Part shown: positions 1 to 61,284 of the stretch, one piece after another
How positions within the stretch are numbered: the first letter of the stretch is position 1
Layout: the number at the start of each line of letters is the position of its first letter
Origin: Rhizodiscina lignyota
Taxonomy: Eukaryota
Direction of reading: 5' to 3'
Assembly (NCBI GenBank): GCA_010015805.1
Contig: ML978122.1
Coordinates: 2,328,453 to 2,392,452 of the forward strand
DNA: 64,000 nucleotides
The notes under the pieces: generated by a model
The model's input: only the letters and a program-made list of their open reading frames with translations
Database searches by the model: none
What the model was told of the DNA's origin: nothing
Program-made: the position numbers and the translations under genes

Positions 1-676
1 AACAGTTCAGTGGTAACACATCTCTTAGCTCGTCCTCGTGCGAGTGTCTTCACATAACAATCAAACCTACACTTCATGGTGACTAGTTTCAATACGAATC
101 CGTCGCGCTATCGAAAGTATCGAGGCAGAATCGCCTATGTGGGTTCGATGTTTCATCGGCGCTCCCAACAAAGCATCTTGGTCCGTATAGCCCCTGATCG
201 AGACGGGGCAGTGTTATGGCAGCGGATGCTATTAGCAAATGAGACTTGAAAGTCAGAGGTAGACATAAGGAGGATGAGCGAGAAAAGCGCCGCCAGAGCT
301 GTTCTCAACCACCGAGGCCCAATTGATTGGTATCTGGAGGAGAGATTGCGGCGCCACTGATCGAAGGAGCCGGCAACACCGGGCAGCGCTCCAGACGCGT
401 TATCGTCCTATCGAATACGCCCTCAGAGTGGCATTTATGACAAAGCGCCATATGCGGCACAATTAGGATCCGTCTCACCGATCTGGCAGTGTATATAAAG
501 GATGACTATTCCAGACTGCTCGTGCTCCTCTCATCGTTCTTGTTCTAACCCATCACCTTCTAAAGTCTTGTCGTAATCCAGCGCAGCGGACTCGGCGTAC
601 GAATGCAACTTACCATTGTCTAATTCATTTCATCCGCTTATAAAGCAGTGTATGAGCCAATTGGACATCAGAAGCA

Positions 677-2024
677 ATGGATGTGATCGATCTCACTCAG
701 GACGATCCCAAGCCGATGATGAATGAGGTGATCGATCTCACCCAGGACGATCCCAAGCCGGTGACGTGTGAGGTAATAGACCTTACGAGATATGATGCAG
801 ATGCATCTCAGGAACAAGACCAATCCGCTCCACGTGTCAGCTCCGAGCCTGCTGAGGGCCTCGGGATCTGTTTCTTTTGCGGCAATGGCTTAAGCAATCC
901 CAAGCACATTTCGAGCTATCGAGCATTTCGATTCGCCGTCTGTGACTGCGTAAGTGGAGTACCAAATTGATGAACCGCGATTTGAGCTTACACGGTGTCA
1001 GGAGATGCGCATAGCGTTAGTTAGCACGAAGAACGTACACTCAGTATACTATAGCACTCCTCCCCTTCAGACATCTCTCGCTTCAATCGATCCACGATAT
1101 TCGCCACTTCTTGCTCGCTGTGTGCAGGCCTGCAGTGGATGTACATTCGACGGCGCTCTGCCTGAGCTAGACGTAGAGCGCTTAATGTGTATGCACCATC
1201 GACAATGCAGCCTGCAAAGCCTGAGAACCATTCAACTTCGGAGCTCTGAGGAGGCTGGTGCGACTAGCCCGACATCAAGTTGCGAGGAGAGTGCCATGAA
1301 TGACAACATCGACGATGAGGCAAATGCTCCCGAGCAAAATTGGGTTGGTCTCGAGAGCGAGATCGACGACTTCGAGGGTTCCTCTAATGAACCTAAGGAT
1401 GAACTTGAAGATTGCGATCTGCCAGGCCTTCCCATACTCAAGCGAGCAGTCTTCAGGCTCCGAGGAGCAGACATTTCAGATGCAACGAATGTCGGCATGA
1501 AGAGGAAACGAAACGACGATATAGACGGCCATGTCAGCTGTCGTATATGTCTAGAACCTATCATTCGTTCCAACGGTCTCGCGGACGATCCTAAGGCTCT
1601 CAGGTGTGGCCACGAATTCCATTCCAGTTGCATTCGTTCATGGCTTTTAAAGGCATTGAGTTGCCCAGTTTGTCGTTGCGAACCGTTCCAGCAGGACGTA
1701 CAAGAAGCTGTCAAGAGTGAGCGGGAGCGATATCGAAACAACATCGAGGAATTCCGCAGTCTATGGGAGCAAGAGCAAGATATAGAAAACAAATGGGAGA
1801 ACGGATACAAGCGCCTAGAATCTCTCGAACAGCAGCAAGATGATCTCGAAGTTCAGCTCGAAGAGGCAAACAAATGGCTAGAATCTCTCAAACAGCGGCA
1901 GCATGATCTTGATACTGATTTTAAGGATTATCGGAACTGGGAAGACAGCCAAAACGATGCTTTGAGGGGTATTTGGAAGCGTAGACGTACCCTAATAGGT
2001 CCGGATGACGATGTAGACTTCTAA
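677..2024 (+). CDS. SIM-repeat + RING-H2 protein (SUMO-targeted ubiquitin ligase-like), at least 2 exons
   Basis: Three VIDLT+acidic motifs at N-terminus. Intron 950-1001 (GTAAGT..CTTAC..CAG) joins ORF 677 in frame to ORF 954. RING-H2 CRICLEP..CGHEFHSSC..W..CPVCR, then C-terminal coiled coil. Confidence 0.8.
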
Positions 2025-2282
2025 TTACCAGCTGCCGATCCGAAGAAGTTGGGACTGTTTATTGTTAATCAAGTTTCGTCTTTTCGATGTCGTGAAAAAT
2101 CTGCGTGTGGTCACGTGATGGAAACCGAGACTTCAGCGCCTGGGTCCAGGTGTTTGGTATCATGAGAACGAGTGCTGGGATCCTAGATCAAGAGCCCGCG
2201 CAGCTCTATGAATAGACTCTATTTAAGAACGGTCTTTTCAATTATTAATTTCTATCCTGCGCCTCCGATTAGCATAACTGAA

Positions 2283-3179
2283 ATGCTCGCTTTTATAGTC
2301 CTCCTATCTCAGCTTCTTTCCGCCTGCATTTGTCACTCATGGGTCGAACAGGTTCGTCTTATATCTGCACATAGCGGCGAATATTTTGGCCAACCTGGGT
2401 ATATGCGTGGCTACGTTCCTCGTACACCCAGCTTTCGAGACGATTTTAACCAGAATCTCCTGCCTCGCACATCCGGTCGTACGAGACTTGAGCTTACCGA
2501 CCCGATCTGCAGATCGTCCCAGAAAGAGGCAAATTATACGACCGCCTTTCCCAAGCTCGTTGCATCCCCGGGTGACTTTATCGCGCTACGATACCTCGAA
2601 AACGGACACGTCACACTGCCTCACATTCAGATTGGTAAGCCTGGTTCGGGCGGGACGATACTCGTATATGCAACAACTCGGCCAGCTGTCGATGAGACAA
2701 TCGGCGAGGTGCTAAGCTGGAGTTCAAACACATCACGAGACAGTCGCGGACGCCTTCTAACCGTGCAGAACTTTGATGATGGCCGCTGCTACCAGATCAA
2801 TAACTCCCCACTGCAACTAGCACGAGCTGAAGAAGTTCCAAACGTGCCCCCAGGCGCTGCTCCAGGAGCGCCAAATGAAGAGCTGTGGTGTGAGACCAAC
2901 GTGCAGATCCCAGTGGAAGTTCGTGGTGACATCACAGTATACTGGGTGTGGGAGTGGAGTACACTTCCAGCTCGCGACCTGGGTCTTCCTGAAGGGAAAG
3001 CGGAATGGTACACTAGTTGCCTAGACATTACTGTCATTGATCCCGTTCAGGCCAGTCTAACATCAAAGACATTCCCTAGTCTCCTCGTCCAAGACCCGCA
3101 TGCTAATGCAGTCACTAATTTTAAGGAAAGAGCAGCGAATACAACAGTGCCAGAAGGTCCGCCAGACCTTTGGATATAG
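2283..3179 (+). CDS. Secreted protein with N-terminal His (HSWVEQ family, LPMO-like features)
   Basis: Signal peptide MLAFIVLLSQLLSACIC then HSWVEQ. Second His in ENGHV. C-terminal YWVWEW and EWYTSCLDI motifs. Confidence 0.7.
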   Translation: MLAFIVLLSQLLSACICHSWVEQVRLISAHSGEYFGQPGYMRGYVPRTPSFRDDFNQNLLPRTSGRTRLELTDPICRSSQKEANYTTAFPKLVASPGDFIALRYLENGHVTLPHIQIGKPGSGGTILVYATTRPAVDETIGEVLSWSSNTSRDSRGRLLTVQNFDDGRCYQINNSPLQLARAEEVPNVPPGAAPGAPNEELWCETNVQIPVEVRGDITVYWVWEWSTLPARDLGLPEGKAEWYTSCLDITVIDPVQASLTSKTFPSLLVQDPHANAVTNFKERAANTTVPEGPPDLWI

Positions 3180-3398: not shown

Positions 3399-3798
3399 NN
3401 NNNNNNNNNNNNNNNNNNNNNNNNNNNNNNNNNNNNNNNNNNNNNNNNNNNNNNNNNNNNNNNNNNNNNNNNNNNNNNNNNNNNNNNNNNNNNNNNNNNN
3501 NNNNNNNNNNNNNNNNNNNNNNNNNNNNNNNNNNNNNNNNNNNNNNNNNNNNNNNNNNNNNNNNNNNNNNNNNNNNNNNNNNNNNNNNNNNNNNNNNNNN
3601 NNNNNNNNNNNNNNNNNNNNNNNNNNNNNNNNNNNNNNNNNNNNNNNNNNNNNNNNNNNNNNNNNNNNNNNNNNNNNNNNNNNNNNNNNNNNNNNNNNNN
3701 NNNNNNNNNNNNNNNNNNNNNNNNNNNNNNNNNNNNNNNNNNNNNNNNNNNNNNNNNNNNNNNNNNNNNNNNNNNNNNNNNNNNNNNNNNNNNNNNNN
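3399..3798. other. Assembly gap (N run), probably a collapsed tandem repeat
   Basis: About 400 N, flanked on the right by degenerate 15-bp units. Confidence 0.95.
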
Positions 3799-3800
3799 AT

Positions 3801-3860
3801 ATACAAAGCTCGAACGTACAAAGCCTGAGCATCCAAAGTTTGAATATACAAATCTTATGC
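3801..3860. repeat. Degenerate 15-bp tandem repeat
   Basis: atacaaagctcgaac/gtacaaagcctgagc/atccaaagtttgaat/atacaaatcttatgc, running into the gap. Confidence 0.7.
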
Positions 3861-3893
3861 ATATTTTTAATAAATAGAGAAAAGAGATCGGAG

Positions 3894-4949
3894 TCACTTA
3901 AAATAATCCGGAATAAGAAGCATTTCACCCCGATCGAACTCCTTAATATACCAAAAGTCGAATCCTACTCTAATCTTTCCCTTATACTCTCGAATTCCAG
4001 GCCTCGCTACTCTGTCGACTTGGAACTGATTTTTCTTGAGAGTAATATATTCGATGCCGATTCCTGCTTCAGGCCCCTCTAGACGATCTACTAAGTCAGG
4101 AAAATACTTGGATTGACCGCTACAGAGTTCTAGACAGGCCGCCGTGGATCTATTTGACTTGTGCTGGCTGATAAAGAAGAGAACTTCAATTCCATTTTGA
4201 TTTGGTACTCGGGAAATATACCAGTCCAGGCCATTATTATCTCTCGCGTAGTCGCTCACTCCTCCAGGTGGCGCGATGTACATCGTAACGAAGGTTTCGG
4301 GTATTACGTTCGGAACTGGGCTGGTGATTTTGGCTCTGCTAACACTTCCGTCGATATTCATGAAAACGGTTTCGTCCTTACGGTCGTTCTCTTCTATTAG
4401 TCGAGGATTTGCTTGTGAATGGAGGACTAATAGCCATAGAACGATCTTCTCTTGGCCGCGATGTTTAGACCAGAACTGGAGGGGTCGCTCAATTCTTTCC
4501 ATCAGGAGCCGTCTATCTTTTCCTACAATTCTGACCTCATGTCCTTCGGAGAGCATTGTCTCCACCCACGGTCTATGCTCGGGCATGTCTCTGAGATAGG
4601 ACAACCATCTCCCCTTTTCAGCATCAGTAAACTGGTAGCGGACTAGAGCTGCCGCCAAAGCAACCTCGGATGCTGTAAGATACTGAAACAAGATGACCTT
4701 GATAGGATAGAGACGGACGAAAATATCGTATAAGAAATTCTTTGCCATCGAGAAAATAGTTTGATACCTGCCATCGAACATTTCCAGCCGTAGACTTTGG
4801 GGTGCCTTCAGTCTATAGTCGTTTCGGTACAATACATCGGATCTTGGATTCAGCATTTTGGTTCCGCGACAGCAGAACCCGGAGCTGGGCACATATTTTT
4901 GTTTGTGGTCGCGAGATCCAGGAAGTGGAAACCGGGGTTGGCGATCCAA
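3894..4949 (-). CDS. Hypothetical protein with possible F-box-like segment (true ATG start probably 4856 or later); 3' end possibly truncated by RIP
   Basis: Long ORF; shares a motif pattern with the 16013-16825 ORF. Confidence 0.6.
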   Translation of the reverse strand: MDRQPRFPLPGSRDHKQKYVPSSGFCCRGTKMLNPRSDVLYRNDYRLKAPQSLRLEMFDGRYQTIFSMAKNFLYDIFVRLYPIKVILFQYLTASEVALAAALVRYQFTDAEKGRWLSYLRDMPEHRPWVETMLSEGHEVRIVGKDRRLLMERIERPLQFWSKHRGQEKIVLWLLVLHSQANPRLIEENDRKDETVFMNIDGSVSRAKITSPVPNVIPETFVTMYIAPPGGVSDYARDNNGLDWYISRVPNQNGIEVLFFISQHKSNRSTAACLELCSGQSKYFPDLVDRLEGPEAGIGIEYITLKKNQFQVDRVARPGIREYKGKIRVGFDFWYIKEFDRGEMLLIPDYFK

Positions 4950-5964: not shown

Positions 5965-8349
5965 ATGGAAGTACATTCAGCCCAAGCAAATATTCCCGGG
6001 CCAAGTAAGCCGATCCCCGACGCAGGCGTCAACAGAACTCATACTGGCTCTGGGGTGTTTGGCGCGGACACTACAAGTGCAAGCGACCCCGACCTCTCGG
6101 ACTCAATTTTCGTGCCTACTCGCAGTGATAAGGGGAAGGGGAAGGCGAAGGCGAAGGCAAAAATTAATCCTTTTGCAGCAAGGGTTGAAGATGAAGATGA
6201 AATGGAAAAAGTAAAGCAGCGAGAAGATGAGGCCAAAAGGGCGAACGAAGCCGCAATAGAGAGAATGCGCGAAAGAGGAGGGGGTCATCAAGTAGTTGAC
6301 CAAGAAGAACGCGACTGGGGGCGCGACCTTCGCACGGCGTATAGAGACAGATTTAAGGCATCTCTGGAAAGGAAAGAAGAGGAGTATCAAGAGCTGAAGG
6401 CGCGTAAAAAGCAGCCGGGAACGCATTTAACACCCCTACAAATCGCGTTGAATCGATACATCTCTACCCAAATGGAGGAAGAGGGCGATGACGATGATAA
6501 CGAAGAGGGCAACGAAGAGGGCAACGAAGAGGGCAACGAAGCTGGCAAGGATGAGGATGAGGATGAGTCAGAACACAATGAACTTCTTAGAAAGGGGACA
6601 GAAAATGCGAAGGTTGGGGGAAATGATGTTTCGCCCAAGTATGCCGTAAAGGAATACACAAAGCTTTTCCCGATTATTAAGAACCTATGGGAGAGACCTA
6701 ACGCGGTGCTGTTGAATGATGAAGAGAAGATACATCAAACTGTTAGGAAGAATATCGCAAAAGCCAATACGAAGAACGGACATCGCGAGGAAGCTTACCA
6801 ATTCCCTATGGAGGCCACGCGGGCGAAGATACTCGGAATCTCTACCACATATACTAAGTGGTGCAATGAAACGAATACGTTAGCGAAAACTCGATTGTCT
6901 GGAGCGCTTGCGAAGGAGGTTTTTATGCTTGCTGGTAGTCTGCGGCGTGACTATGGGGTTTCTTGGCGATACCTCGCGAGTATCGATATCAAAACAGCCC
7001 TTGCAGAGGCGATCGGAAATAGCGAGCCCGAGTTCCGGGAATGGTTCTTCGAGATGACGCCATATCAGAAGGAGTTAGTAAAAGACGATAATGAGACTGT
7101 TCAAGCGGTCACGAAGCTGTTCGAAACGGACGTCTCTGCTACTGACGCTAAAGATATAGTAAAACGAGTGAAAACAAGGCTCGAAGATGCTAACAAGCGA
7201 CTTGAACTACAAAACGAGGAATATGGCCTGTCAGAGGAGGACGTATCGCTTACTATAACGAATCTCAATACCATGGAGGCGGCAATTCACAGCCAAAATG
7301 CCGACAAGTTCAAGGAACAGGTGCGATACCTATGGAGTTACTTGAACATGCTAGGGTTCACCTTCAACCAACCATATCCAGACTTTCAAAAAGATATACC
7401 AGTAAACGACCTCGTGGATTACCTCGGCATCACTTATAAAATTCCTCCAGGGGGTGCCAATTCGGGCGACACTCCAGGGGGTGCCAATTCGGGCGACACT
7501 CCAGGGGGTGCCAATTCGGACGACACTCCAGGGGGTGCCAATTCGGACGACACTCCAGGGGGTGCCAATTCGGACGACACAATAAAAGAAGCAGACTATT
7601 TGGCTGAATACAGGGCTCGTCACTTTACGTTTCAGGCAGACGAAAGACACGATTATACACGATTTGGGAAAATCGTACAAGTCAGACCAGTGGGTAGAGG
7701 TTACCGGGTGATAATCAACGCCGGCACAGATGCGATGTTTAGATTGATAATCAAGACGTCCAGCGAACTAGGTGCAGAGTCGGACAAGCCTAGAAAACTT
7801 TTTGAAAATCATAAAGAAGAATTCACGCCGAAGCCCACAGGCGATGTAGGCGAAGCAGATATAGCAGAGATACTTGATTTTGTTGAGATACCATGGAAGA
7901 CGAACGCGCGCGAAGATGGAGTACAGCTACGCCGCCCTCGGGGCAGTCCTCCTAATACCATACCAACGATTCCGGTACGGCCAGTTGGCATGTGGGCTGT
8001 AAAGATGAAGCAGACAAGTAAGCTCTACCCTGGCGAGGTAGTGATCTGGTCCCACTCGGATTTTATCAAGAGAGCCAAGAAGAAGCGAGCGGAAGAATAT
8101 CGAACGCACTACAAGACTGTCCGTGTAAGGTGGGAGCGGCATTTTGAGCAAATGAAGGCCAACTCCAGGAATCCAGCTAACGGAAAGCCGCTCACACAAA
8201 ACGAGATCAAAAAGATGCCATGGCTTGCCCCAGACCGCATGCAGACAGCTGCAGACCAGCCAACGCAACAAGAGGGCAGAACAGATGAGAGCGCAGATGA
8301 GAGCGAAGCGGATCTCCCGCCATTACGGGGAGGTCCTCCTACAGTTTGA
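5965..8349 (+). CDS. Large hypothetical protein with coiled coil, acidic tract and 9-aa repeats
   Basis: About 790-codon uninterrupted ORF from ATG 5965; no family recognised. Confidence 0.8.
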   Translation: MEVHSAQANIPGPSKPIPDAGVNRTHTGSGVFGADTTSASDPDLSDSIFVPTRSDKGKGKAKAKAKINPFAARVEDEDEMEKVKQREDEAKRANEAAIERMRERGGGHQVVDQEERDWGRDLRTAYRDRFKASLERKEEEYQELKARKKQPGTHLTPLQIALNRYISTQMEEEGDDDDNEEGNEEGNEEGNEAGKDEDEDESEHNELLRKGTENAKVGGNDVSPKYAVKEYTKLFPIIKNLWERPNAVLLNDEEKIHQTVRKNIAKANTKNGHREEAYQFPMEATRAKILGISTTYTKWCNETNTLAKTRLSGALAKEVFMLAGSLRRDYGVSWRYLASIDIKTALAEAIGNSEPEFREWFFEMTPYQKELVKDDNETVQAVTKLFETDVSATDAKDIVKRVKTRLEDANKRLELQNEEYGLSEEDVSLTITNLNTMEAAIHSQNADKFKEQVRYLWSYLNMLGFTFNQPYPDFQKDIPVNDLVDYLGITYKIPPGGANSGDTPGGANSGDTPGGANSDDTPGGANSDDTPGGANSDDTIKEADYLAEYRARHFTFQADERHDYTRFGKIVQVRPVGRGYRVIINAGTDAMFRLIIKTSSELGAESDKPRKLFENHKEEFTPKPTGDVGEADIAEILDFVEIPWKTNAREDGVQLRRPRGSPPNTIPTIPVRPVGMWAVKMKQTSKLYPGEVVIWSHSDFIKRAKKKRAEEYRTHYKTVRVRWERHFEQMKANSRNPANGKPLTQNEIKKMPWLAPDRMQTAADQPTQQEGRTDESADESEADLPPLRGGPPTV
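7444..7578 (+). repeat. 27-bp coding tandem repeat x5 (TPGGANSG/DD)
   Basis: Five near-identical ccagggggtgccaattcgg(a/g)cgac(act) units. Confidence 0.95.
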
Positions 8350-12416: not shown

Positions 12417-12775
12417 GTTTGGTCTTCAAATGGGCGGTGATGTGAATGATTGGACAAGATCTGTTGTAGTGGATTATTGATTTCCAACAATGCGGCCGCT
12501 GAAGTTATTTTATGTCATGCTTGAGAACTATTACAAGAACACGAGAGATTCGAAAGTACTATGAAATCTGAGAGTCACATTCCTAGAAGCTGCTCCTTGG
12601 ACTATGGATGGCCGGATAGTTTGTCGGCCTGGAACCTGGAATCGGGCTCTGGACTCGGGCTCTGAGAACCACTCTCAAATCCAATCCAGGCAAGCGATAA
12701 TTCGCTTATATAGGGCGTTTTTAGCAACCGGTTTCCCAAAGACTTTCGGCTCGATTAAAAATACGCTCCTTTTCC

Positions 12776-19754: not shown

Positions 19755-19758
19755 TACC

Positions 19759-44712: not shown

Positions 44713-44819
44713 ATCATCACTAAGCTAGGAGGACCGCGACAATGAACTAACTACCTTCAACCAAATTACATTCTTGAGTTGCCAGCGATCCCCTCAATCC
44801 CCCCCACCCCCAGAGCCCC

Positions 44820-45026
44820 CTACGTCGAGTGACTATGTCCTGGCCGTGGCCCGGCCCTCCTAGAAGACCCAGCCGTACGGAGTAAGTAGTTTGGACACTC
44901 CTGAATGTTGCCGTTGGCAGGCTTGCTTGGACATGGAGGCCCTGGTGTCCGGTCGACCTTGTTACAGTCTGGATTCTTACAACCACCACCTTGGTAGATG
45001 ATCGTGGTCTCGTATTCGACGCACAT
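44820..45026 (-). CDS. Small Cys-rich intracellular protein
   Basis: MCVEY..CKNPDC..CP..ECP; 5'UTR intron-like signals (CTAAC..CAG) just upstream; convergent with the kinase. Confidence 0.55.
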   Translation of the reverse strand: MCVEYETTIIYQGGGCKNPDCNKVDRTPGPPCPSKPANGNIQECPNYLLRTAGSSRRAGPRPGHSHST

Positions 45027-48524: not shown

Positions 48525-48638
48525 AGTAGCGGTGGTAAAAGAATGTAGGTATATGCTGACATTGTCTAATGTCCAATGCGGTCGAGTGTCAAGTTCTTAA
48601 CTGTTCAACCGGCGAAGTCGTGCATTGTGACAGGGTCG

Positions 48639-48694
48639 TGACGCTTTGACACAGGGAACAAAAACTAGTTTTTGTTCCCTGTGTCAAAGCGTCA
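48639..48694. repeat. Perfect 56-bp palindrome
   Basis: tgacgctttgacacagggaacaaaaact|agtttttgttccctgtgtcaaagcgtca. Confidence 0.97.
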
Positions 48695-49006
48695 GCGCTA
48701 AACTATTTCTGTGCAGAGCTTTTCTTCCCGGAGGTTCCCGAAGTCGCCAAAACCACCACACACAAATCGAAGACGCCAGAATATTGTTGTCGTATCACCC
48801 AAGGGAGGACCACAACGATTGTTTATGGAGATATTCCAACGCAAATACAAAAAAGTCTATCTCACAGAAGTAATCAATTTCAAGTCGTCGGATGGGCAGC
48901 GTGCCGGTGCTGCAAATTCATGCCATTGTGGACCTTCGTTACCTGAACAGCAGTAATGATTGTATGTATTACTCTTCAGACTATGCTACGCTGCTTGGCT
49001 AACCGG

Positions 49007-50317
49007 TCAATCACTTGTTAAACCACATTCTCCATTTTCCTTCACTAACTCGGCCAGGGAGCCAACAGCAGCATCGGGATCGTCCATATTCTTGATGAAG
49101 TGATTCTGGATAGACGCTGGAGAGAGAGAAGTTTCGGGTATGCCATTTTCGAACTTGTCCACTAGTGGGTTTGATTTGGGCAGCTCATAATGAACCATGA
49201 ACATCCTCTTTGCTTGGGCCTTCGTCGCTAACGGCAGCTCGACGCGGCGGCCGATTCGTCCAGGTCTAATCAATGCAGGGTCCAGGTTCTCTAGATGGTT
49301 CGTTGTCATAATTAGGACCCTTCCCTCTACAGCTCCCGCTCCATCGATCACATTCAACAAACCAGAGAGCGTGACACCATCTGGGCTGCCCTGTTGCTCC
49401 CTTTGCAGCCCCGCACTGTCGATGTCTTCCAGAATAATCATACTAGGTTTCCGGGTTCTTCCGAATAGTACTCTTATCTCCACATCAGTCATGCTTCTTT
49501 CAGCGAGGGAGAGCGTGTAGACTTCCAGCTGGAAATGACTTGCGAGGGCAAGGGCAAAACTTGACTTGCCAGTCCCTGGTGGACCGTAGAAGAGGTAGCC
49601 ACGACGGTATGGGATGCCTCGTCTCGCATACGTCTCGGCATCCGCAATGTAGCTTCTAACATCGTCAATAACGTCTCGTTTCAGCTCTTCGTCCAGGATA
49701 ACGGTCTCTAGACGCCTCGGAGCACAGCTTCGATCCAAATACCAGCGGCCTTGGTTACCATCGCATTCTTTACTCGCAGGTCGTTTGATGCTGAGAGAGT
49801 ACTTCTTCCGCCCAGCAGACCAAGATCCAATCTTTTCCAACAGCTCTTTTAGAGGAGTGCATGACCATCCAACCGTCCGGATGATAATGGATTCTTTGAC
49901 TCGCAACTGTGAAGGATTGGGGTCCCTTTCTCTTGTAAAGAAGAAAGGTCTCTTCCAGTACCAATCAGTAACAGTAGAGCCTGGGCCGAGCTCGTATGTG
50001 ATGGTGGTAGTCCGCTTGGCTAGTGAATGTCGGCCTTGCACTCTATCGCTCAACCAATCCACAACCTCTTGGAAGAATTCGCTATTACCATCTATTAACA
50101 TAGATGGTAAGACCTTAAGGAAGCTTAGCCAAATGCGAGGGTAAATATATATAAGAGAGGTGGAAAAAATGCAAAATTGTAGTATTCGTTCGACCGGGCT
50201 GCCGTTTTTCAAGATACGAATCCAGGAGCTGAAGCTGGAGCTAATGGGCATGGCAAATCCAGGAAGATCTTCGACGTGTATCTGACGCTTGGGAGATGCA
50301 ACATTGTTTTTGTCCAT
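49007..50317 (-). CDS. BCS1-like AAA ATPase
   Basis: RGIPYRRGYLFYGPPGTGKSS, IILEDID, VTLSGLLNVIDG, DPALIRPGRI; N-terminal TM segment. Confidence 0.93.
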   Translation of the reverse strand: MDKNNVASPKRQIHVEDLPGFAMPISSSFSSWIRILKNGSPVERILQFCIFSTSLIYIYPRIWLSFLKVLPSMLIDGNSEFFQEVVDWLSDRVQGRHSLAKRTTTITYELGPGSTVTDWYWKRPFFFTRERDPNPSQLRVKESIIIRTVGWSCTPLKELLEKIGSWSAGRKKYSLSIKRPASKECDGNQGRWYLDRSCAPRRLETVILDEELKRDVIDDVRSYIADAETYARRGIPYRRGYLFYGPPGTGKSSFALALASHFQLEVYTLSLAERSMTDVEIRVLFGRTRKPSMIILEDIDSAGLQREQQGSPDGVTLSGLLNVIDGAGAVEGRVLIMTTNHLENLDPALIRPGRIGRRVELPLATKAQAKRMFMVHYELPKSNPLVDKFENGIPETSLSPASIQNHFIKNMDDPDAAVGSLAELVKENGECGLTSD

Positions 50318-50638
50318 TGCGGAATCGTGGCCACAGCCTTACTCGGACCTTAGGTGCAACATCAGAGCGACCGAGCACTGTGTCCCTCCTATATACGTTA
50401 AACCGATTCTTAGAGCCGCTTTCCTGAGCAAGGGCCTCCAACCCCCAGCCCTGCTCCCGTGTCGCCTCGGATGCAGCCTACGTTCAGCTGGTCGAAACAT
50501 GCTTGCAATTGCATAGAAAGCATCGGCGTGGCTGGCTTAATCGCACTACCAAAGTGGGGGGAAATTCCATTTTGGCCATTTTCAGCTACGCCTCGATTAA
50601 CGAATACTCCTCGCTATCTCACTTCTAATGCCTTATCT

Positions 50639-51355
50639 CTACATGAACTTGACCCCAGCAGATCCACTATGCCACTTTAATCCAGAAACTTTCACAAATC
50701 TGACTGGAAGCTCATCATCCCCAGAATCACAAATCCTCAACGTGTATACATTGTTTGCCCACTTGTCGAAGGGCGCCTCAAAGCCCGTAAGTATACCGCC
50801 AATTTTTTCATGACCATCTTCAATCTCGATTTTACGGTTCAACCCCTTCGTTAGTTGAAGTCCACGTATCATCTTCGGCGAAAATTGGTTCCTATGGGTG
50901 CCATGTCTCTTGTCGTAGCATTCTGTAGCAATTCTCTTGAGCTCTTCAATAAGAGCGTTGATCTCGTTGGTGTCTTCCTGCTCCCTGTGGCGAACATGCA
51001 GAAATAGAGAAGCAGCTTCGGCCACCCTTACGATGGGCTCCCGGTAATTTGGGCTCGAATCCCCTCCAATGCGCTTGAATAGCGAGCTGCGTACGTATAT
51101 CTGAGGTTCATACGGATCCTTTGTGACATCCTCGAACGCCTGAGCTGTTTTATCGTCCTTGTCATCGGTGACTGGTGTCCGCCGGATAATCGATCGACTG
51201 TTTTTCGGTTTCTTTTTACAGTATTGCACAAATATACAATTCATGATGATGAAAATAAGGTATGGTAACGATTGCTTCAATATGACAGAAGGTACGATCC
51301 CACCAAACAATCCCATGATTCCTATCTCTTTGTTTGAGGACAGATTGAAGTTCAT
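50639..51355 (-). CDS. Hypothetical protein with N-terminal hydrophobic segment
   Basis: 238-aa ATG ORF. Confidence 0.55.
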   Translation of the reverse strand: MNFNLSSNKEIGIMGLFGGIVPSVILKQSLPYLIFIIMNCIFVQYCKKKPKNSRSIIRRTPVTDDKDDKTAQAFEDVTKDPYEPQIYVRSSLFKRIGGDSSPNYREPIVRVAEAASLFLHVRHREQEDTNEINALIEELKRIATECYDKRHGTHRNQFSPKMIRGLQLTKGLNRKIEIEDGHEKIGGILTGFEAPFDKWANNVYTLRICDSGDDELPVRFVKVSGLKWHSGSAGVKFM

Positions 51356-51898
51356 TCTCCGATTAGCTGAGGAGGTTTAATGTGAAGAGACGGAAATTTG
51401 CAAGCTGAAGGTGAGGCCGGCTGGAGGTTATATCTTCACCCTGACGAAAACAAACATTCGAAGATTGGAGCTTTGGCAATACGGATACACTAAAGGAACT
51501 ACGCTCGTGTAGTTTAGCATAGTCAGAGATTTCCATTGATCAATCACGATCTTCGCCAGTTCGTGCTCGCTATGTGCTCTGACAAAGTACAGACGTTTCG
51601 TATATAGATACTATGATTTATGAATGAAAAACAAGTCTTAAGTCTCAAACATAAGCTACGGTACTCTCTCGTATTCCTCCCTTCGAAATCATCGGCTGGA
51701 CAACCGGCGCAGGTGATGAAATCGGGCGCTCGGAATTTGTCAATGCTTGAGTTGACCTCGAGAGCTGTATGTCGCTCCTCTGTTGGCCTTCCAAAATATC
51801 AAAAACACGTTGACATCTCTGTTCGATCTGTTCCCTGAAAATCCCGTATCTACTTAAGCTCGCTTGAGTGATAGCCGATGATATCTGCGGAATATTAG

Positions 51899-52680
51899 CT
51901 ATAATCGATTACCCAATGACGAACAACGAACCCATATGATTATAGAGAGTCGCTCTGTATCCCGTTTTGGAACATAAAGAACTAGAGTGAACATAAAGAC
52001 AAGCCCCAGCGTACAAGGTGTAAGGATCGGTGATGCCCTTTTCAATGCCCGATTTGTCGGAAGGAGATAACAAAGACACGGCGAATAGGCAACAAACCAA
52101 ATCACCAACCGAATTTTCACATGTTCTGATCTTGGCCTAGGTTTCGTGAGCTGATTAGATACATAATTACGAGAAGACTTACATTAACAAAACGCAGGCG
52201 TTGGCAAAACAGCAAAGAGTGATCCACGTCATAAAAACCCACGCCCAGGTCCGGCGGGTTATAAAGAGGTGAATAAAAATATACTCTCCCTAGGTACAGT
52301 TTAGCGGGAATAGTACTAAAGTAAAAGCATACATACCTCGAGTACAGTTGGCAGGAATTCTGCAAAGCCAGAAACGTATTGTACAGTATCTGAGAGGCCG
52401 GGGTCTCTTGTATTCACCGCGAAGAGAATCGTAGCAGCTACAAAAGTAACTAGCGACACAGTACTCGATACCAAAATAATGATGACGAGGATACGATAAG
52501 TGGCTGGATCGGCTGGTGACCGACGCCACTGCGACAAGCCATTGGATGGAAATGATAAAAGGCCTAGAACCAATAACAAAGCAGAAAAGATAATGCCCGT
52601 AAATGGCGCAGGGCCAGCATCTGATGCTAGCTGCATCAGTCAAACCGGGAAGGGGCGAAAAATTGGATACAGACACGATG
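51899..52680 (-). CDS. Multi-pass membrane protein, multi-exon (structure uncertain)
   Basis: Hydrophobic segments FTGIIFSALLLVLGLLSF and ILVIIILVSSTVSLVTFVAATILFAV; GTATGT donor after PTVLE. Confidence 0.45.
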
Positions 52681-53158
52681 ACAATGTGGAAACCAAAGGT
52701 TGACCGGTGAGAATGGAATCAGAGCATGCAGCAAGTACAGCTCAGCAGGGCGTTGAACGGGGCGTAAGGAGATGCATATATAACAGTCAGGATTTACCGA
52801 TTAATGTACGAGCGCCTGGAGTGTCGTGGACGACCCACATCGAATGCTCGTGAAGGATCGTACGCTTTGAGACCTGATCAGGAAGCGAGGGCGTGTCTGC
52901 AGAGGAAGATGCGTGGTAATGGTGGATGTAAACACCCACGTTAGCCGAGTGGGAATATCGTTTTTAAGGTGCCCTGGGCCCGCATAGCACAGGGGTCATG
53001 TCAAGGCGGCACGGGAGCCTATGCATTAGTCCTATCCCCTTCTGGACGAAGTTGGAAAGCACTTTCCAACTTCGTCCAGAAGGGGATAGGGCGAGCCAAG
53101 ACCTGCTTTGAAGGCGCGCAGAAGCGCCCGACCCTTCTTTTACTCCAATAACTTCTAC

Positions 53159-55992
53159 ATGGCCGAGTCTTTATTCACAAGACTAACAAAAGGGGACTAC
53201 AAGGCTGTTACGGACGATGAGGTATGAGCAAAACTTCTTTCTAAAGATATGATCTCACTGAACTATAGTGCGAATTTCTCACCCGTATTCTCAACGCTGC
53301 GCCATACTTGTTCCTTCATGACTCAACCCTAGGTAACAAGAGGACATCCGATACTCCAGATGCCGGCAGAAGTGCAAAGAAGGCGAAGTCAAAAACCGAG
53401 AAACTTAATGAGAGTTACTACCCCGAGGGTTTTGTGAGCTTGTTAGAAGAGAAAAGAGAAGGCTGGGAGTCAGATCCCAAATCCTTTTTCGGCGAGCTTG
53501 AGATCCAATCTGACGACACTGATGGTTCTGCTGCCAGCATCTTCTCTTTCGCTGTGCGGTTGGATATTTCAACAACATTCACGGATCGTCAAAAGCGACT
53601 AGTCCACGTGGCACTCGCGTTATTACACGAGCCGTATACTCATGTGGACGCGATTTGGAGTCGAATCCAGGAAAGCCGAATAGCGAAGACACTGCAAAAA
53701 CAGCATCCTCAACACTTCTCAAAAAACAGATTGCGAACTGTTTTGAAATATGGTCGGAAATGGTGGATTATTGCGCACCTCTGTGCAAAGCTGGACCAGC
53801 GGAGCCACCGACCTCACGAAAACTGTAGTCATGTTCTTGATTGTCCTCATTCTGGTCTCTGTGAGAGTGATGACGAGTGTGCCGGTAGGGGCTGCGACCT
53901 TTCGGGGGAATGCTTCTTTCATCCACCACACGTAGTGCAAAGGATGATTGGTGTCATATTGCTCCTGGATCAAGGCTACTCGTAAGTCGTAGTGAGCAGC
54001 CTAATGAACGCTCGCTGACGAAAGAAAGATGGGAGGCCGCCAAGTACGATCAATGCGAGGCAGCTCTGGCTTGCCTCGGTGTCCGCACCGATCTATTTAA
54101 ACGTGCAAAGGCCAATAGCGGTGTGGTCCAAGCTATCTTGAAAATGTTGAAGGGGGGTAAGTTGTAAGGACCGATTTGATTCTAGTTGCTGACGCTCTTA
54201 GGCGCGACCTTTCCTCATCACGACAACGAGGAACCAACCCGGGCACCTTCGTCATTGCAGTCGAGACCAGAGATTCCCACCCCAGAACAAGCGCGATTTC
54301 AGGTACCAGGTGCAGTGCAGCAGACTCGCCCTCCAATCCACGCTCTTAGCGATGCCGACCATGCCTCCGGGATTGTATCAGGTCTTCTACTGTTCCTTCA
54401 TTTCTTGGTCGGACCTGATTTGAAAGTGGAGATCCCGCTCCTGACATTCATTGGGTACCAGCGGAAGAGGTGGAAGGAAGATGGCGATCAGGAAATGTAC
54501 ACAGCACTCGAACATGGTCTTAGCGAAGAGCTCCACAAACTTTTCCAGGGCGAGCACAAGCTGGAAGGGGCATTACGGACTCTTCACAGACAAGGATATA
54601 TTGAATTCGTCTCCGACTACCAAGCTATTCAGTTGCGGCGCCACGTAGAGAAGTTCCTTTTAGATGCGGATACTCAGTCTTACTGGAAAGACCAAGTGCT
54701 ACGAGCCATTTGTTACTTGTTCACCGGGAATGCGAATTCAAAGGAGTAGGTTGCAGCTCTGTCGTCCATCGTTCCACCTCTGATGGCGCACTAGGTTCTC
54801 GAGGGTCGGCTGTCTAGCGTTACCCTACTTCGAGCGACTTATGAATAGCAGCATGTCAGAAATGCCACCATCTACCCGCGATCTCATGGTTGAAGCGCTT
54901 GTTACCTCCAGCAGCTTCTCAACACTTGAGTGGAAGGAACGAGCGCTAGAACGCATCGAACATATAACGACGAAGAGTGGACACACGTTAGATACATCGA
55001 CGGAGCTTCTCATTCTAGTTCGGAAATCCTTCGTCCATCGTATGAAGAAACAACCAAATTGTTCCATCCAACTTATCGAGCCGCACCTACGGAACATTGA
55101 AGACATTTCAAATCGAAAGATGCATGTTATGATAGGCAAGCTCCACCTTGAGCTCGGCTATGCTTTCCACGAGAGGGGAGAGTTCAATAAGGCGCAGTGT
55201 ATTCTCCAATCATGGCCATACAAGTCTTGCGTTCATGAGGATATAAATCTTTCGCTCTTCGAACTGAGCATCATGAGGAAGATCGCTGAGGCCCGTGGCT
55301 GGGTCTCCACCTGTGCCAAGGATTTCCAGGCAGCGGAGAACTCCCTTACCATCGCGCTGACATACTACCCAGAAGGGGAACCGATCAGTTACAGGAGCCG
55401 AAGCCTCCTTGCAGGTATATACTGTGAGCAAGGAAGATCGAGCGACGCGGTCTCACTGCTGAAGAAACACGTTGCATGCTCTATGGAACGACTCGACTAC
55501 AGACCATACCGAGAACTCCTGGTATCGTACACAGAGGTTTTAGTCTGTGCCAACGAGTTCGATGAGGCGGCCAAGTATCTTCCAAAGCTAAGCGAGTACT
55601 TTGATGGCAACTCTAACCCACTAGAACAGAAGAAGAAGGTTCGAGTTATGATTTCCTCGGCCCGGCGGGAGCACCACCTCGCCAAAGATCGCGTTCAGTG
55701 GAGTAACACACTAACTTGCTGGGAAAGAGTTATGACAGAAATTAAGGGATCCGGCATACTGGATATGGCTGGGGCTGACTGTGGCGTTATACGTTTGTTC
55801 ATGTCATTTGCTGCCAGTGAGCTTGGACGGCACACAGAGGCTGAAAGCTACAGGCGTGTTGGGCGTGAAGCACTTAAATCGCGTTCTGATTTCTGGATTC
55901 ATGGTCTGGGAACGCATTGTCTTCGATATGCTGAGGAAAAGCTGAGGTCGAAGAAAGGGAGCGGTAGCAATGTCGCGCTAGATTGTGAATGA
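53159..55992 (+). CDS. Multi-exon TPR-repeat protein (NLR-like C-terminal half, no P-loop seen)
   Basis: ORFs 53308, 54186 and 54841 appear linkable by short GT-AG introns. Winged-helix-like ALRTLHRQGYIEF..IQLRRHV, then TPR-like LHLELGYAFHERGEFNKA and LLAGIYCEQGRSSDAVSLL. Confidence 0.7.
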
Positions 55993-56465
55993 ACTGTGAG
56001 ATGTATCTAGAGCTAACCATGACTTTGCCGGTCGACGATCATCGTTGTATGTAAGCTCTTCTCCTCAATGGGCAAATAGGAAAGTGTCATTATGCTTCCT
56101 GATATGACTGCGTCGCTAACGGAAACGCACTGAGATGAGTGTCTTGAATCAACCGCTAAGGGGGCATGGCGATAGCACATATCTAGTCTGCAAGCATTCG
56201 CTAATCTCTCCTGAAAACATACTAGTGCTTTGCCTCTTTCTGATGCATCAGCTTCGATGCCCGAAGCTTCTCGCGTCGCGCAGTTCTAAGTTCGCCTCGC
56301 AGGGGACGAGGGGCCGATGCATGGATTGTCGTGCTAGTATTTGGCGAAAGTGCGAATTTATCACGGTGATAGGCTCTATAAATTTCTAAGATTTCTCTCT
56401 CGTTCTAATCAACCCCCACCAGATAAATATCCTCTCAAGTCTGTAATGGGCTAGCTTCGGAGAGA

Positions 56466-58680
56466 ATGGCTAATAACAACACCGGCAAGAGAGGCAAGCA
56501 AAAGTGTGGCTACTGTAAGAAGACTGGCCATAAGAAGAAGGACTGCAGCAAGAAGAAGGAAGATCAAGAGGAGGAAGATCAAGAAAAGGAAGATCAAGAG
56601 GAGGAAGGTCAAGAGGAAGATCAAGAGGAAGATCAAGAGGAAGATCAAGAGGAGGAAGATCGAGAAAAGGAAGGATATGAAGAGGGAGATAAATTTTTTC
56701 TCTGGAGTTCTCGTAAAATAACCACACTCCCGCGATTAGTATAAGTTACTAATTTGGCCGTAGGTAAATATCCGGACCAACTTGTGGATTTCATCGACCT
56801 CAACTCCACGCTTCTAAGAGACGCTGTAGGCAAGATTCTGAGAGACGCATGCAGAATATTACTCGAGCGTGACGTCGCGGTATGGACCCCCACCAACACT
56901 CTACCAGGATAGGATATATACTAATCATACGAACAGGTTGAAGGAATAATCATGTTTCATTGCCTTCCAGAGCTACAAGCATATAAGGATGCTTTGGAGG
57001 AGATTGAGCAACAATCTTCACTCAGGAGACAATTCGAGCTTCTAATTAATAGTGTCCACAAAAAATATGGCACAATACAGAAACAGCTCGACGACCTCCT
57101 TGCGAGACAAGAGATCACATTTGATTTGCTCCCATTCATCTTCAAACCGAGCACGGAGGTATATACAACATGTCCCGATACCGGCTCTCCATGGATAGCT
57201 CGACTCAATTACGCAATGCTCCAAAGCAGGGAACTCCACCTTGAGTGCCGGGGCCTAGATCATGTTGGCGGCTTCTTTGCCGAGAATACATTCCCTCGGA
57301 CGATCAAGTGTTTTCAAGCAGCCATGCGAATCGACTCTCTCGTAGTGTATCCCCTCAAATTCCATCGCGAGGCAGACCTAATAAGAATAAGGCTTACTGA
57401 GCGCGGACGACACTTCATTTCACTGAAAGAGTACCAGCATCAGCAGTATCACGGTATTGCATTTACACCCGGAGGCACTGCTCCGTGCCGTTCTGTCCAT
57501 GGTCGCATTATCATAGACACACTCAGCTTCCAAACAACGGATCTTCCTCCGATACCACCGCTATTGCCTCCAATACCACCGCTGTTATTGAAACGTCGTG
57601 CGCCTCCACCGATCCTTACCTATCCAGAAGTGAGGATCAACAGACTCGACGAACAAGATCTCGTTCTGTGTGTTCCAACGCTGCGTGGCTACTGCCTTCA
57701 AGCTAAAGCTTTCTGTATGTCTTTGAGTACATTGTTCAGCTTATGACCTAACGACGTCAGTTCGCTTTGCCGTTGAATGTATCAGCGATATTGAATGGAA
57801 CGAATCCATGATTGATGAAATTCACATTTCCGCGAATTACAAGCAGATGATTCGCGCTCTTGCCTCGAGGTATACCAAGGTTGACTATATCGAGGAAGGA
57901 AAAGCTCATAGATGTATTCTCCTGCTATAGTATGGTAATCAAGCCTCGTGATTTATTCAGATCGCTTACTACTGTAGTGGACCGCCCGGCGTTGGGAAGG
58001 CCTCCACCGTCGAAGCAATCGCTGAGTGGTTAAAACTTCCACTCTTTGTCGTAAGTAGCTATTGGAAGATCGATTGAAATCCTATTAACAGGTATAGATC
58101 TCCGCCAAAGATATGCTGCCAAATGGTATGAACGAAATGCTACCGGAATACCTCACTCTTGCAACCCGGTGGGGATGTGTAACGCTTGTAAAGGAAGCGG
58201 ATCGGTTGGTCGATGCGCATCAGCAGCTCTTACGCATCATTCAGTACCCTTGCGGCGGCATCTTGTGTCTGAACACAAATCGATTGAGGAAATTCGATGA
58301 AGCAATGATCAACAGAATAAACTTGGCCATCCCATTTTCAACTCTAAGGCGAGGTACTCGAACCAAGATTTGGAAGGCGCTCCTCGAGAAAGAGAAAAGT
58401 GTATTTGGACACCCGAAGTATAGTAGCCAGGATCTTGATGAGTTGTCTAAGATGACACGGGGTCTTAACGGGCACGAAGTGACTATAACCCTCTCTTCCT
58501 TCCACTCTATTAACTAAACCATTGAGATAGATCAGAAATATTATATCGACTGCCGCTACGACTGCTTCATTCGAAGGATCTTGTGTAACTTATAGTTACC
58601 TAGACGTGGCTGCTACGGCTGCAGTAAGTCTGCGGCAAGGGTGGGAGAGAGGAGTGAAAGATCTTGAGATGTACATATGA
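56466..58680 (+). CDS. AAA+ ATPase-like protein with N-terminal zinc knuckle and acidic repeat; degenerate Walker motifs; multi-exon
   Basis: CGYCKKTGHKKKDC; EEDQ repeats; ITFDLLPFIFKP; GPPGVGKASTVEAIAE; VTLVKEAD; LNTNR..FDEAMINRI; LNGHE|IRN. Confidence 0.85.
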
Positions 58681-58767
58681 AAAAGAAGAGTGAATACATT
58701 GGAGCTATTCAGTAACTGTGTATATGAACTGCGAAATAGCCAGCGTTTTACGTCTGTAGTGTCTGCT

Positions 58768-61052
58768 TCAACAGACTCGTACTGAGAGAAAGCCAGCCGA
58801 TCGCTGCCTTGGCAGAGGCGTTTTGTGATCAAGCTCTGCATGACTCTTCAGGCCGTTTACAGAATCGACCAGCACGCTGCAAGAGGGATGCGGACAGATC
58901 ATCCCACCGTTCCACTTACTGAAATGTTCGTCCGACATATGGCGGCTGAGACTGCTCCGATTCGCATACTGTCGGGTCCTGTCCTCGTAGCTCATAGATT
59001 CGTCGCCCAGGCAGAAAATGCACTGCGTTTCCTCGCACTCAATGGGAAATGCTTGAATAGGCTTTTCTTCCGAGGGGAATCTCAGGCTCTCCGAGGCGTC
59101 GCTCTCTATCCCCTTCACAGCTGCGAATACGGCCCTACGTCCCGATCGTCCGGGCACATAGCGTTCCCTTTTACCGCAGAGATTGGCAATAGCTTGCACC
59201 GCTCGAGCGCGACACGCAGCCTCATTTCCCGGATCAGAAGTCGTCCTGACCATTAGTGCTGATATCGCTTCTCTGCGCTCGGGTAGATGGTGGATCTCGG
59301 GCGCCGTTTCGAGGCTTGGGATTTCGACTGGGAGGCCTTGAAGCTGTCTCTGGATGTCTAGAACAGGCTGCTCTTGAGAGAATCGATCCTTTACCTCGTC
59401 AACCACTCGACGTTCACATTTTTTCTTTGCTGCCAGATATTTGTTCTTCTTCTTCTTAACTTGCTCATCTCCCGACGTCGATTCGTCTCTTTTCCGCTTG
59501 AGCTTAGCATTCTGCCATTCTTGTCGGCATTTCACAACCTCAGGGTCGTTGTTAACGAGCTGGTCCCTTTGGGCGTCATCAAGCCCCTTCGGCCTTCTCG
59601 GGTCTTGGCTTTGAATCATGGAGGTGGCCAGCCGTATGATATCACTCTGAGGCGTTGTGCCGTGGAACGAAGCCTGAAGATCTGCACGAATATCGTTCGA
59701 TTGGTAATTACGTTGATATACGTCGATTTTTTGATGATCCATCACCAAGGCTTGTTGCTCTGGGCTGATGTCCTCTATTGCATATTGGGTAAGCAAGGGA
59801 TTGACAAATAGAGTATCATATTCATAGACTTACTGCTTAGATTGATCCCTTCACCACCGCCATAGCGGAAGGAGTATGGCTTGGTGTCCCACTCAATACT
59901 CGTATCCTCCGCGATCCTCTTGAGCGCATTTCGCAGTATGGAATATGTGAGCTCGGAAAACACCGGAGTGTCGAGCTTTGATGAATCCAAGGGGAACACC
60001 TGTCTTTTTAAGCCGGTTGGAACACGTAAGCTATAAATAGAGCTAGCATCCTTCAGTCCAGCCAGAGGGTGAAAGATCTTGCGGCCAATAGCTAGGCCGA
60101 ACATCGCGACTTGCGGATCAAGGAGTAGGCATGACTCGTACATGGCCGGATAGGTATGCGTTTTACTGGAAGCGTGTCAGAATGTACGCTCACGAATATC
60201 TGTGAGAGGCAAAAGACGAGCGAAGATCAATACGTACGGTTTCTTTGGCCCCAAATACGTTTTTGTGCCATTGAATCGAATCTTAATAGTGGGGACGTCG
60301 CCTCGAAGCTCGTCAGGGTAGAGCACGAACTTGATGTCACCCCATTTCAGGCCCAGAAGAGCTGCTGGCCTACTTGTCGACAATCCGGCCAAGTTCATAG
60401 CTACTGAAATCTCCGCGCGGAGATCCTCGGACTTAAAGGTCATCCGCTTAGAGCACCAGAGCGTCTGCTCAAACGCGAACATCTCTTCCGAGCGAACGCA
60501 TCGCTTCTCTTCCTGCTCTGTCACATCTCCAGGGGGGATCAGCCCATATTTCATGCTCAGCTGAGCTCGAATCTTATTATGCGATCAGCAAATGCCCAAC
60601 TTGAGCTTTTCCAGTTGGACGTACTCCATCTGCCAGGTAGGTAATGACAGGGTTGACGTTCTCGGCACAGGCAGCCTTCATATGCAGAGTCCGGAGCGCG
60701 TCCCAGTACGTCCGTAGGGAGTTATCTTTATTGATTCTAAAGTTCATGAGCATCCAGTCAAGGAAGCCATAGATCGTCGATGCCTTTAGCTGAACGAGCT
60801 CTTCGTCTCGGTTAGTGCCTCTCAGGGAATGGTACCTGCAGCGAAAAGTCAAATACTATCTCCGTTGCGAGTGTAAGAAGCTCACTCATTCCATCGCCGC
60901 TCGACTAGAGATATGAGCGCTTTTGTGTTTTCACTAAGATTTTTTTCGGCGTCTCTAGACGGGTCGAAATTTTCCGCTTTTTGCTGGAGGGCGGCTTGAG
61001 AATTGTCGAGAGTAGTGCTTACTGGTACGGCACGCTCGCGGCGGGCTACCAT
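58768..61052 (-). CDS. DUF3435 tyrosine recombinase (Starship captain), 5 exons
   Basis: Spliced frame is open: RRWNE|YH..GFLDW..SLRTYW|..TSRPAALLGL..|..LLLDP..PYSFRYGGG|..LVMDHQKIDVYQRNYQS..DPRRP..QCIFCLGD..SLSRH..CPHPSC..LKSHAELDH. Confidence 0.95.
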
Positions 61053-61284
61053 TTTGATTTTCGTCTGGAAGAATTTATCCAAGCTATTATTACGGCTCGA
61101 GGATAACGCATTACTTATCTACTGCAATCTCTCTTTTTCGGATACAGTGGAAAACTTGGATCCAGGAGTTGTTCGTACGCGACTTGGGGCCGGGATCCGT
61201 GTAGTGCTAAAAACTATTGGCGGCTAGAGAATCTCTAATGAATACGCGCTATGTTTTAATAGACCCGATATTTAGACTTTATTT

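Follow-up and report, generated by a model that had tools for sequence, protein, structure and literature searches.

A putative Prometheus-family Starship with a captain of predicted Cre-like fold in Rhizodiscina lignyota

A stretch of 64 kb from the wood-dwelling fungus Rhizodiscina lignyota, in what follows called the window, holds what we take, with a probability of about 55%, to be a Starship of the Prometheus family (captain family 5), present in one copy and with its structure intact. Its captain, a DUF3435 tyrosine recombinase, is intact and, judged by its sequence, looks catalytically complete. It is the last annotated gene before an AT-rich block at 61.25-62.1 kb and is transcribed towards a cargo that includes the DUF3723, ferric reductase (FRE) and patatin-like phospholipase (PLP) genes. 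The captain's cluster at 90% identity has one member on one contig, and the interior of the region carries no signature of repeat-induced point mutation (RIP), which together fit a single copy. Where the element ends, that the region is one element and that it is mobile at present is what we infer. Starships shift tens to hundreds of kb within and between fungal species, and since they move such large gene sets each intact captain with its cargo is a possible vehicle of gene transfer. The useful outcomes here are a complete captain of Cre-like predicted fold, a position near 61.25 kb, against a RIP-mutated repeat, that can be proposed for the 5′ junction, and two leads on the organisation of accessory genes in Starships, namely an upstream motif shared by two genes (ACACGGATCCCGGCCCC) and a conserved accessory block bracketed by inverted repeats.

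Locus and captain are already contained in two published surveys, to which little new is added. In 2022 Gluck-Thaler et al. (Mol Biol Evol 39:msac109; PMC9156397) listed the locus as 'rhilig1|candidate|h36', with 28 genes on scaffold_2:2330735-2389504, corresponding to positions 2283-61052 of the window (window coordinate = published scaffold_2 coordinate − 2328452; after this subtraction 28 of 28 published gene starts land on an ATG). The list closes with the captain, entered as the minus-strand DUF3435 gene rhilig1_72239 (scaffold_2:2387220-2389504), and the calls for DUF3723, FRE and PLP are the same as ours. According to these rows, 8 of the 28 genes match genes of the reference element Voyager and none has an NLR match. 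The survey gives no ends for the candidate. Its supplement mentions 'rhilig1' 57 times, a number accounted for by the row of the genome itself and by the 28 gene rows, which name it twice each, so that the region stands in none of its tables of curated ends. The same paper defines a Starship by target-site duplications on either side and by DUF3435 at the 5′ end, terminal inverted repeats (TIRs) being common but not required, and calls 'Starship-like' a region in which DUF3435 is accompanied by DUF3723, FRE, PLP and/or NLR genes without target-site duplications. By this definition the R. lignyota region, which has DUF3435 together with DUF3723, FRE and PLP and in which no target-site duplications were found, is 'Starship-like'.

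In 2024 Gluck-Thaler and Vogan (NAR 52:5496; PMC11162782) included the captain gene in Table S3 as a predicted recombinase and assigned it in Table S4 to fam05, where at 50% identity it represents itself; their Table 1 gives family 5 the name Prometheus. In Table S8 of this survey, on the starfish run, R. lignyota stands with a single genome, in which two recombinase genes were predicted and no element was delimited. A literature search found no paper in which Rhizodiscina and Starship occur together in the main text. What is new here concerns the captain, with its catalytic residues checked and its fold predicted, the RIP-mutated sequence at its flank, the repeats inside the region and the 17-nt motif.

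The captain gene and its relatives

The five exons of the captain gene (Table 1) are separated by four introns of 50, 52, 72 and 59 nt, each of them GT..AG, and are read as one open frame of 683 aa, as the original prediction, made by a model from the letters of the DNA, had claimed. The translation is identical at every letter to the 683-aa hypothetical protein NA57DRAFT_72239 of R. lignyota (P0001); the largest exon was also found 100% identical to this NCBI protein. The predicted DUF3435 identity was confirmed with Pfam, in which three colinear exon open reading frames (ORFs) match PF11917 with E values of 6.5e-15 (profile positions 2-87), 1.5e-17 (95-213) and 3.6e-39 (213-417 of 418). The four putative catalytic motifs named in the prediction are all present: SRP at 193-195, YxxR (YSFR) at 335-338, MDH at 360-362 and RNY at 370-372. 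When the captain was aligned with 21 full-length relatives chosen from the 150 phmmer matches listed, R194, K230, R338, H362, Y372 and P410, and no other columns, were invariant across the 22 sequences. The catalytic order R, K, (H/Y)xxR, H/W and nucleophile Y is thus represented by R194, K230, Y335-x-x-R338, H362 and Y372, with Tyr335 standing where the HxxR box usually has His.

A C-terminal zinc finger had also been predicted, and the evidence is in its favour: the Cys/His pattern of the C-terminus is kept in most of the 21 aligned relatives, and a PDB search with the family profile gave a weak match to solved C2H2 zinc fingers (best E = 0.0011). Zinc fingers were all that this search reached; no solved recombinase was found by sequence (XerA, E = 0.88). 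An AlphaFold2 model built on the 22-sequence alignment (mean pLDDT 82.8, pTM 0.77) has a predicted two-domain fold, core-binding plus catalytic, that is Cre-like. When the model was compared with the PDB by Foldseek, Cre recombinase chains ranked first (E = 3.4e-6, probability 1.00, target-normalised TM 0.59-0.65, alignments spanning 364-389 columns), followed in the list by Flp, integron integrase, XerH, Tn1549 integrase and protelomerase; 35 PDB matches had an E value of 0.001 or less. The captain would thus share with Cre, Flp, Xer and the integrases of bacteria, phages and yeast plasmids the two-domain fold and the catalytic R, K, (H/Y)xxR, H and Y. It differs from them in sequence (10-14% identity), in having Tyr for His in the xxR box, and in its C-terminal extension of 230 aa, which comprises a long helix and the C2H2-type finger.

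A phmmer search with the captain in 1.84 billion representatives gave 731 matches at E ≤ 0.001, 273 at ≤ 1e-10 and 34 at ≤ 1e-30. The best match, from Aulographum hederae of the same order, is just 38% identical, which leaves recent movement or transfer without support. Further close matches are from Vezdaea, Friedmanniomyces, Coniosporium, Aspergillus wentii and Elasticomyces. The A. wentii protein OJJ29631.1 (P0009; E = 5.3e-50, approximately 30% identity) is also fam05 in PMC11162782, and because of this the membership of the captain in the Prometheus family, which is taken from the tables of that survey, is supported indirectly.

A word-index protein search with a captain exon returned only the window's own protein, and with the whole captain only this protein and one relative of 23% identity. 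With the captain protein as query, metagenome contigs gave 308 pattern matches, of which 0 were confirmed as relatives. Two short proteins encoded on one 2.4-kb contig of a public sequencing run, P0008 (144 aa) and P0013 (118 aa), match successive parts of the captain with 81% and 74% identity, which indicates that some unsampled organism has a far closer captain relative than the named genomes.

Starship-type cargo and the captain-side end

The cargo was read from a Pfam scan of 376 stop-to-stop ORFs of at least 62 aa (94 + 150 + 132), 17 of which were re-scanned at E up to 1, and from the published rows (Table 1). DUF3723, FRE and PLP, the accessory genes that the original prediction had named as typical of Starships, are all present, all less than 40 kb from the captain, and their frames are readable open. 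The NLR-type genes named together with them were not found: neither the 376 scanned ORFs nor the 17 re-scanned ones have a NACHT, NB-ARC or HET domain. The DUF3723 gene can be read open via two short GT..AG introns, for which 48 combinations work, so that the exact sites are not fixed. In FRE there is one in-frame stop, which falls within a plausible 46-nt intron. The Patatin match in Pfam covers the start of the domain and is below threshold (24.9 bits vs a cut-off of 27.7; ORF 33771-35549, plus strand); the frames of the gene show GGGxRG (as GGGVRG), GSSAG and, later, DGS.

Table 1. Features of the R. lignyota window in window coordinates, from left to right
Feature	Position	Strand	Basis and remarks
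RING-finger gene NA57DRAFT_52762, 431 aa	677-2021	+	Pfam on ORF 954-2021
DUF7492 gene, homologue of Voyager mp102_11362	2283-3179	+	Pfam (E 5e-79; ORF 2187-3176, +), published row
Homologue of Voyager mp102_11336	5965-8349	+	Published row; without Pfam family or usable Atlas match
Chromodomain	12725-13201	+	Weak Pfam match
19-kb segment with weaker inverted repeat	19551-38619		Arms 19551-19678 and 38479-38619
Protein kinase, homologue of Voyager mp102_11342	19922-20879	-	Pfam Pkinase, published row
Ferric reductase (FRE) rhilig1_72223	21124-22942	+	Pfam (Ferric_reduct + FAD_binding_8 at 21046-22455, +), published row
Homologue of Voyager mp102_11344	24343-25007	-	Published row; without Pfam match
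DUF3723 accessory gene rhilig1_72229	30250-33545	-	Pfam on three colinear ORFs (30253-33566, -; E 6e-47, 1.4e-21, 1.5e-11), published row
Patatin-like phospholipase (PLP) rhilig1_31891	33867-36984	+	Partial Pfam, motifs, published PF01734
Further cargo block	37097-58097		Pfam, published rows
Chromodomain	37100-38272	-	Confident Pfam match
Mur-ligase-type, folylpolyglutamate-synthase-like	40300-41172	-	Pfam
10.8-kb segment with inverted repeat	45379-56159		Arms 45379-45497 and 56024-56159
BCS1-type AAA ATPase	49010-50338	-	Pfam
TPR	54784-55989	+	Pfam
DUF7025 + AAA	56.9-58.1 kb		Pfam
Captain, DUF3435 tyrosine recombinase, NA57DRAFT_72239 / rhilig1_72239	58768-61052	-	683 aa, 5 exons
Captain exons	61052-60886, 60835-60625, 60572-60238, 60165-59834, 59774-58768 (with stop)	-	Gene model from DNA
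Captain upstream region	61053-61253	-	Normal composition, holds ACACGGATCCCGGCCCC; composition in 100-nt steps
RIP-mutated AT-rich repeat	61254-62100		About 0.85 kb, GC approximately 0.3

The leftmost Starship-associated gene is the DUF7492 gene, which sets the minimum extent of the region. The at least 60 kb of cargo of the original prediction is fairly restated as approximately 59 kb of Starship-type cargo, with Starship-associated genes from the captain to position 2283. The 3′ end probably lies to the left of 2283, outside the window.

At the other side the captain is, as had been predicted, the first gene on the minus strand: a region-edge gene next to the AT-rich block that reads inward. 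Normal composition ends near 61253. Between 61301 and 61950 there are only 0-2 CA + TG per 100 nt, and for 61001-62000 the GC content is 0.32, TpA/ApT is 1.78 and (CpA+TpG)/(ApC+GpT) is 0.30. The strongly RIP-like block is the sole one in the 64-kb window, and its signature indicates that the sequence was once repeated; probably it is the insertion context and lies outside the element. Most insertion sites of the Prometheus family are AT-rich and often in transposable elements, as described in PMC11162782, and the R. lignyota captain, a member of fam05 in that survey, likewise has AT-rich, RIP-like sequence at its side, the one side in view. The junction between unique sequence and RIP-mutated repeat, taken together with this tendency of the family, makes it likely that the 5′ end of the element is at approximately 61.25 kb, about 200 bp upstream of the captain ATG. 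The right boundary at 61280 in the original prediction agrees with this position. DNA folding at the presumed 5′ junction indicated no structure (z-score 0.07).

One public sequencing run, possibly the source sample itself, contains the stretch as contigs; no RNA run with it is listed. Over 44001-64000 the contigs of this run confirm the assembly, and no alternative joint or empty site was seen in them over this range. They are long and unbroken inside the element except at the internal repeats, and short in the RIP block, with loose ends at 61326, 62381, 62468 and 62505. In the RIP block the contigs show one C-to-T difference, at 61381, and the contig depth is 59.8 vs approximately 155. The pattern suggests that the genome has related copies of the repeat at other places or that AT-rich DNA is poorly covered.

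Mobile element, relic or something smaller

For an intact element a mechanism can be drawn up by analogy with Hephaestus of Paecilomyces variotii (Urquhart et al., PMC10104507), whose captain is necessary and sufficient for transposition according to PMC12153272. The R. lignyota captain would act as a tyrosine recombinase of the Cre fold, with R194, K230, Y335xxR338 and H362 as catalytic residues and Y372 as nucleophile; it would bind both ends of the element, excise it and re-insert it at a short target motif, the C2H2-type finger probably aiding in DNA recognition, and all DNA between the ends would be carried along. The 5′ end near 61.25 kb at the RIP-mutated AT-rich repeat would be a typical Prometheus insertion context, from which the element would extend leftwards for at least 59 kb, past DUF3723 and PLP, FRE, the kinase and three more Starship-associated genes, beyond 2283. 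Enzyme class and architecture would be the same as in Hephaestus. The two differ in that Hephaestus belongs to family 2, has the target TTAC(N7)A (PMC11162782) and is of proven activity, whereas the R. lignyota element is known from its sequence.

Within the Prometheus family the region is in the size range of Gnosis and Logos of Aspergillus fumigatus, for which target motifs have been predicted; the A. fumigatus elements average 56-93 kb (PMC12153272). For the R. lignyota region neither direct repeats nor TIRs nor an empty site are known, and its captain, from a host in the Aulographales, is just about 30% identical to the fam05 captain of A. wentii. With Voyager of Macrophomina phaseolina it has eight gene families in common, namely DUF3435, DUF3723, FRE, PLP and the relatives of mp102_11342, mp102_11344, mp102_11336 and mp102_11362. 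Voyager, however, is of family 10 and targets 5S rDNA (PMC11162782), and it carries NLR genes (PMC9156397), of which none was found in the R. lignyota window. No Rfam family exceeds its gathering score in the window, so that there is no 5S rRNA gene in it, and the interrupted 5S gene that marks the 5S-rDNA-targeting class (Voyager, Arwing and many elements of the Enterprise family) is absent from the window.

Several points weigh against an intact, mobile Starship. Its 3′ end is not in view, and at the 5′ side the contig loose end at 61326 differs from the change in composition near 61254, which makes the exact junction uncertain. The RIP block matched no known transposon: in six frames read through stops no Pfam family was found. 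Self-BLAST and repeat finders gave no direct repeats or TIRs linking the captain-side edge to the window, and exact matches of at least 10 nt at this edge numbered 42, vs 21-62 in ten shuffles. The assignment to family 5 is taken from published tables, and the closest captain among the 1.84 billion representatives is as distant as given above. Finally, the stretch is contained in one public run, and the survey of PMC11162782 had one genome of the species and delimited 0 elements in it.

A fixed, immobile relic of a Starship, with ends eroded or rearranged and an open captain left without substrate, is a serious alternative, though we hold it to be the less probable one. A relic is what the published label 'Starship-like' means when taken literally. 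It would go with the lack of direct repeats and TIRs in the window and with the zero elements that starfish delimited in the R. lignyota genome (PMC11162782); with a best captain match of 38% identity the insertion may be old, the two internal pairs of inverted repeats (see below) hint at former rearrangement, and the Starship-associated genes are scattered, unclustered, across the full 59 kb. A relic does not go well with a captain whose frame, four introns and five catalytic residues are all intact, nor with DUF3723, FRE and PLP genes that are also readable open. The zero from starfish says little, since the program requires a second genome with an empty site and the survey has one genome for the species. 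Likewise, the direct repeats of Starships are short, 2-6 bp (PMC11162782), and are therefore not recognisable without an empty site. Weighing the two, we favour the intact Starship. The original prediction of one possibly mobile Starship is right in kind, with ends and mobility as its unproven part: no direct repeats or TIRs were found in the window, and the region is 'Starship-like' by definition.

A smaller element has also been considered, for which the 17-nt sequence ACACGGATCCCGGCCCC is the reason. It occurs twice in the window, exactly, at 20971-20987 (plus strand) and 61186-61202 (minus strand), with no further copy in the window at up to 3 mismatches, and the pair is the sole match of more than 12 nt between the 320 nt upstream of the captain and the remaining window. 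Were the two copies TIRs, they would delimit a Starship of 40 kb (20971-61202) that encloses FRE, DUF3723, PLP and the captain, the genes to the left of 20971 being an older neighbouring remnant. We consider this very improbable. The copies are not flanked by direct repeats, and their similarity ends at 17 nt, with different bases on either side, which makes them improbable as TIRs. Chance alone yields distant pairs of 16-mers (in 20 simulations, 0-3 of them per window), normal sequence without RIP runs about 50 nt past 61202, and three Voyager-type genes lie to the left of 20971. Moreover, the copies stand 136 nt before the ATG of FRE and 133 nt before that of the captain, in equal orientation to the gene, which better suits a promoter element.

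As a bare repeat ACACGGATCCCGGCCCC is unremarkable; the odd part is the matching position before the two start codons. At both FRE and the captain it is followed by a second short shared motif, TC(T/C)TGGATC. A comparison of shared 9-mers within 400 nt upstream of the 28 genes gave nothing convincing. That captain and FRE share ACACGGATCCCGGCCCC as a cis-regulatory element is a tentative idea, and we think it rather unlikely to hold. If true, it would be the first hint of a Starship accessory gene co-regulated with the recombinase and would bear on the role of FRE, DUF3723 and PLP in Starships.

Fungal Cryptons, like Starships, are eukaryotic transposons with a tyrosine recombinase; they are small and free of cargo. 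That there is no cargo-carrying element at all, merely a lone DUF3435 or Crypton-like recombinase beside an ordinary neighbourhood of accessory genes, is the least probable of the explanations: the ends of the element are undefined and many fungal DUF3435 genes are found without a delimited element (10,771 predicted recombinases in the survey of PMC11162782, 0 elements in R. lignyota), but 8 of the 28 genes belong to Voyager families, among them DUF3723, FRE and PLP, by which Starship-like regions are defined. In addition, the captain occupies the margin of the region and is transcribed inwards, and DUF3723 (minus strand) and PLP (plus strand) stand head-to-head with 321 bp between them, an arrangement that 6 of the 10 published candidates carrying both also show (PMC9156397, supplement parts 236-237). 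Unlike in Cryptons, a Starship-type gene set of 59 kb follows the recombinase gene, and in the 2024 tree CryptonF is merely the outgroup to these recombinases (PMC11162782).

Further genes, internal repeats and side observations

The Pfam matches to protein kinases in the window are three fragments, and a kinase gene is also among the further cargo between PLP and the captain. A 915-aa cargo gene is JmjC-like by Atlas look-up (scores 0.88-0.92), which is to be taken as a lead only. For the RING-finger gene, situated to the left of the published candidate, a word-index search of 5.8 billion proteins gave no relative, and in this respect the gene is unlike conserved core genome; the accessory region may extend to the left of the published candidate and past the start of the window. 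For the ORF starting near 63850, whose N-terminus recalls HET, Pfam gave no match at E ≤ 0.001, and no claim is made. A tRNA scan found no tRNA genes in the window.

Two segments of the region are bracketed by inverted repeats. The pair at 45.4/56.1 kb, with 78-90% identity and exact runs of 24 and 33 nt, is real; its arms sit just beyond the 3′ ends of outward-pointing genes, and the contigs of the public run break at both of them. Enclosed are the JmjC-like gene, the BCS1-type AAA ATPase, a small gene and the TPR gene. The genes beside the arms were considered as paralogues, which was rejected since no paralogy was found. The other pair, which encloses 19 kb, is weaker (65 nt at 80% plus 27 nt at 93%), and its arms lie in mildly AT-rich stretches. 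It brackets accessory genes conserved among Starship-like regions: within it are the kinase, FRE, the mp102_11344-like gene, DUF3723, PLP and the chromodomain gene. When the two pairs were compared, they proved unrelated to one another.

A run of 400 N (3399-3798) separates the DUF7492 gene from the gene that follows, and the sequence to the right of the run is AT-rich (3801-4050, GC 0.36). An ORF at 29778-30383 (plus strand), which the published gene list lacks, contains a DNA-binding motif of the SRF type (MADS) that falls slightly short of the Pfam cut-off (24.9 vs 26 bits), and it overlaps the 3′ end of the DUF3723 gene. SRF-type genes adjoin FRE in the candidate regions rhysec1 h19 and psever1 h21 of PMC9156397.

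The other predicted Starship recombinase of R. lignyota in Table S3 of PMC11162782 is a 1.2-kb piece at scaffold_2:1464178-1465417, assigned to family 2 (Hephaestus). It lies on the same scaffold as the captain, approximately 0.9 Mb away, and is the only other one that the survey gives for this genome.

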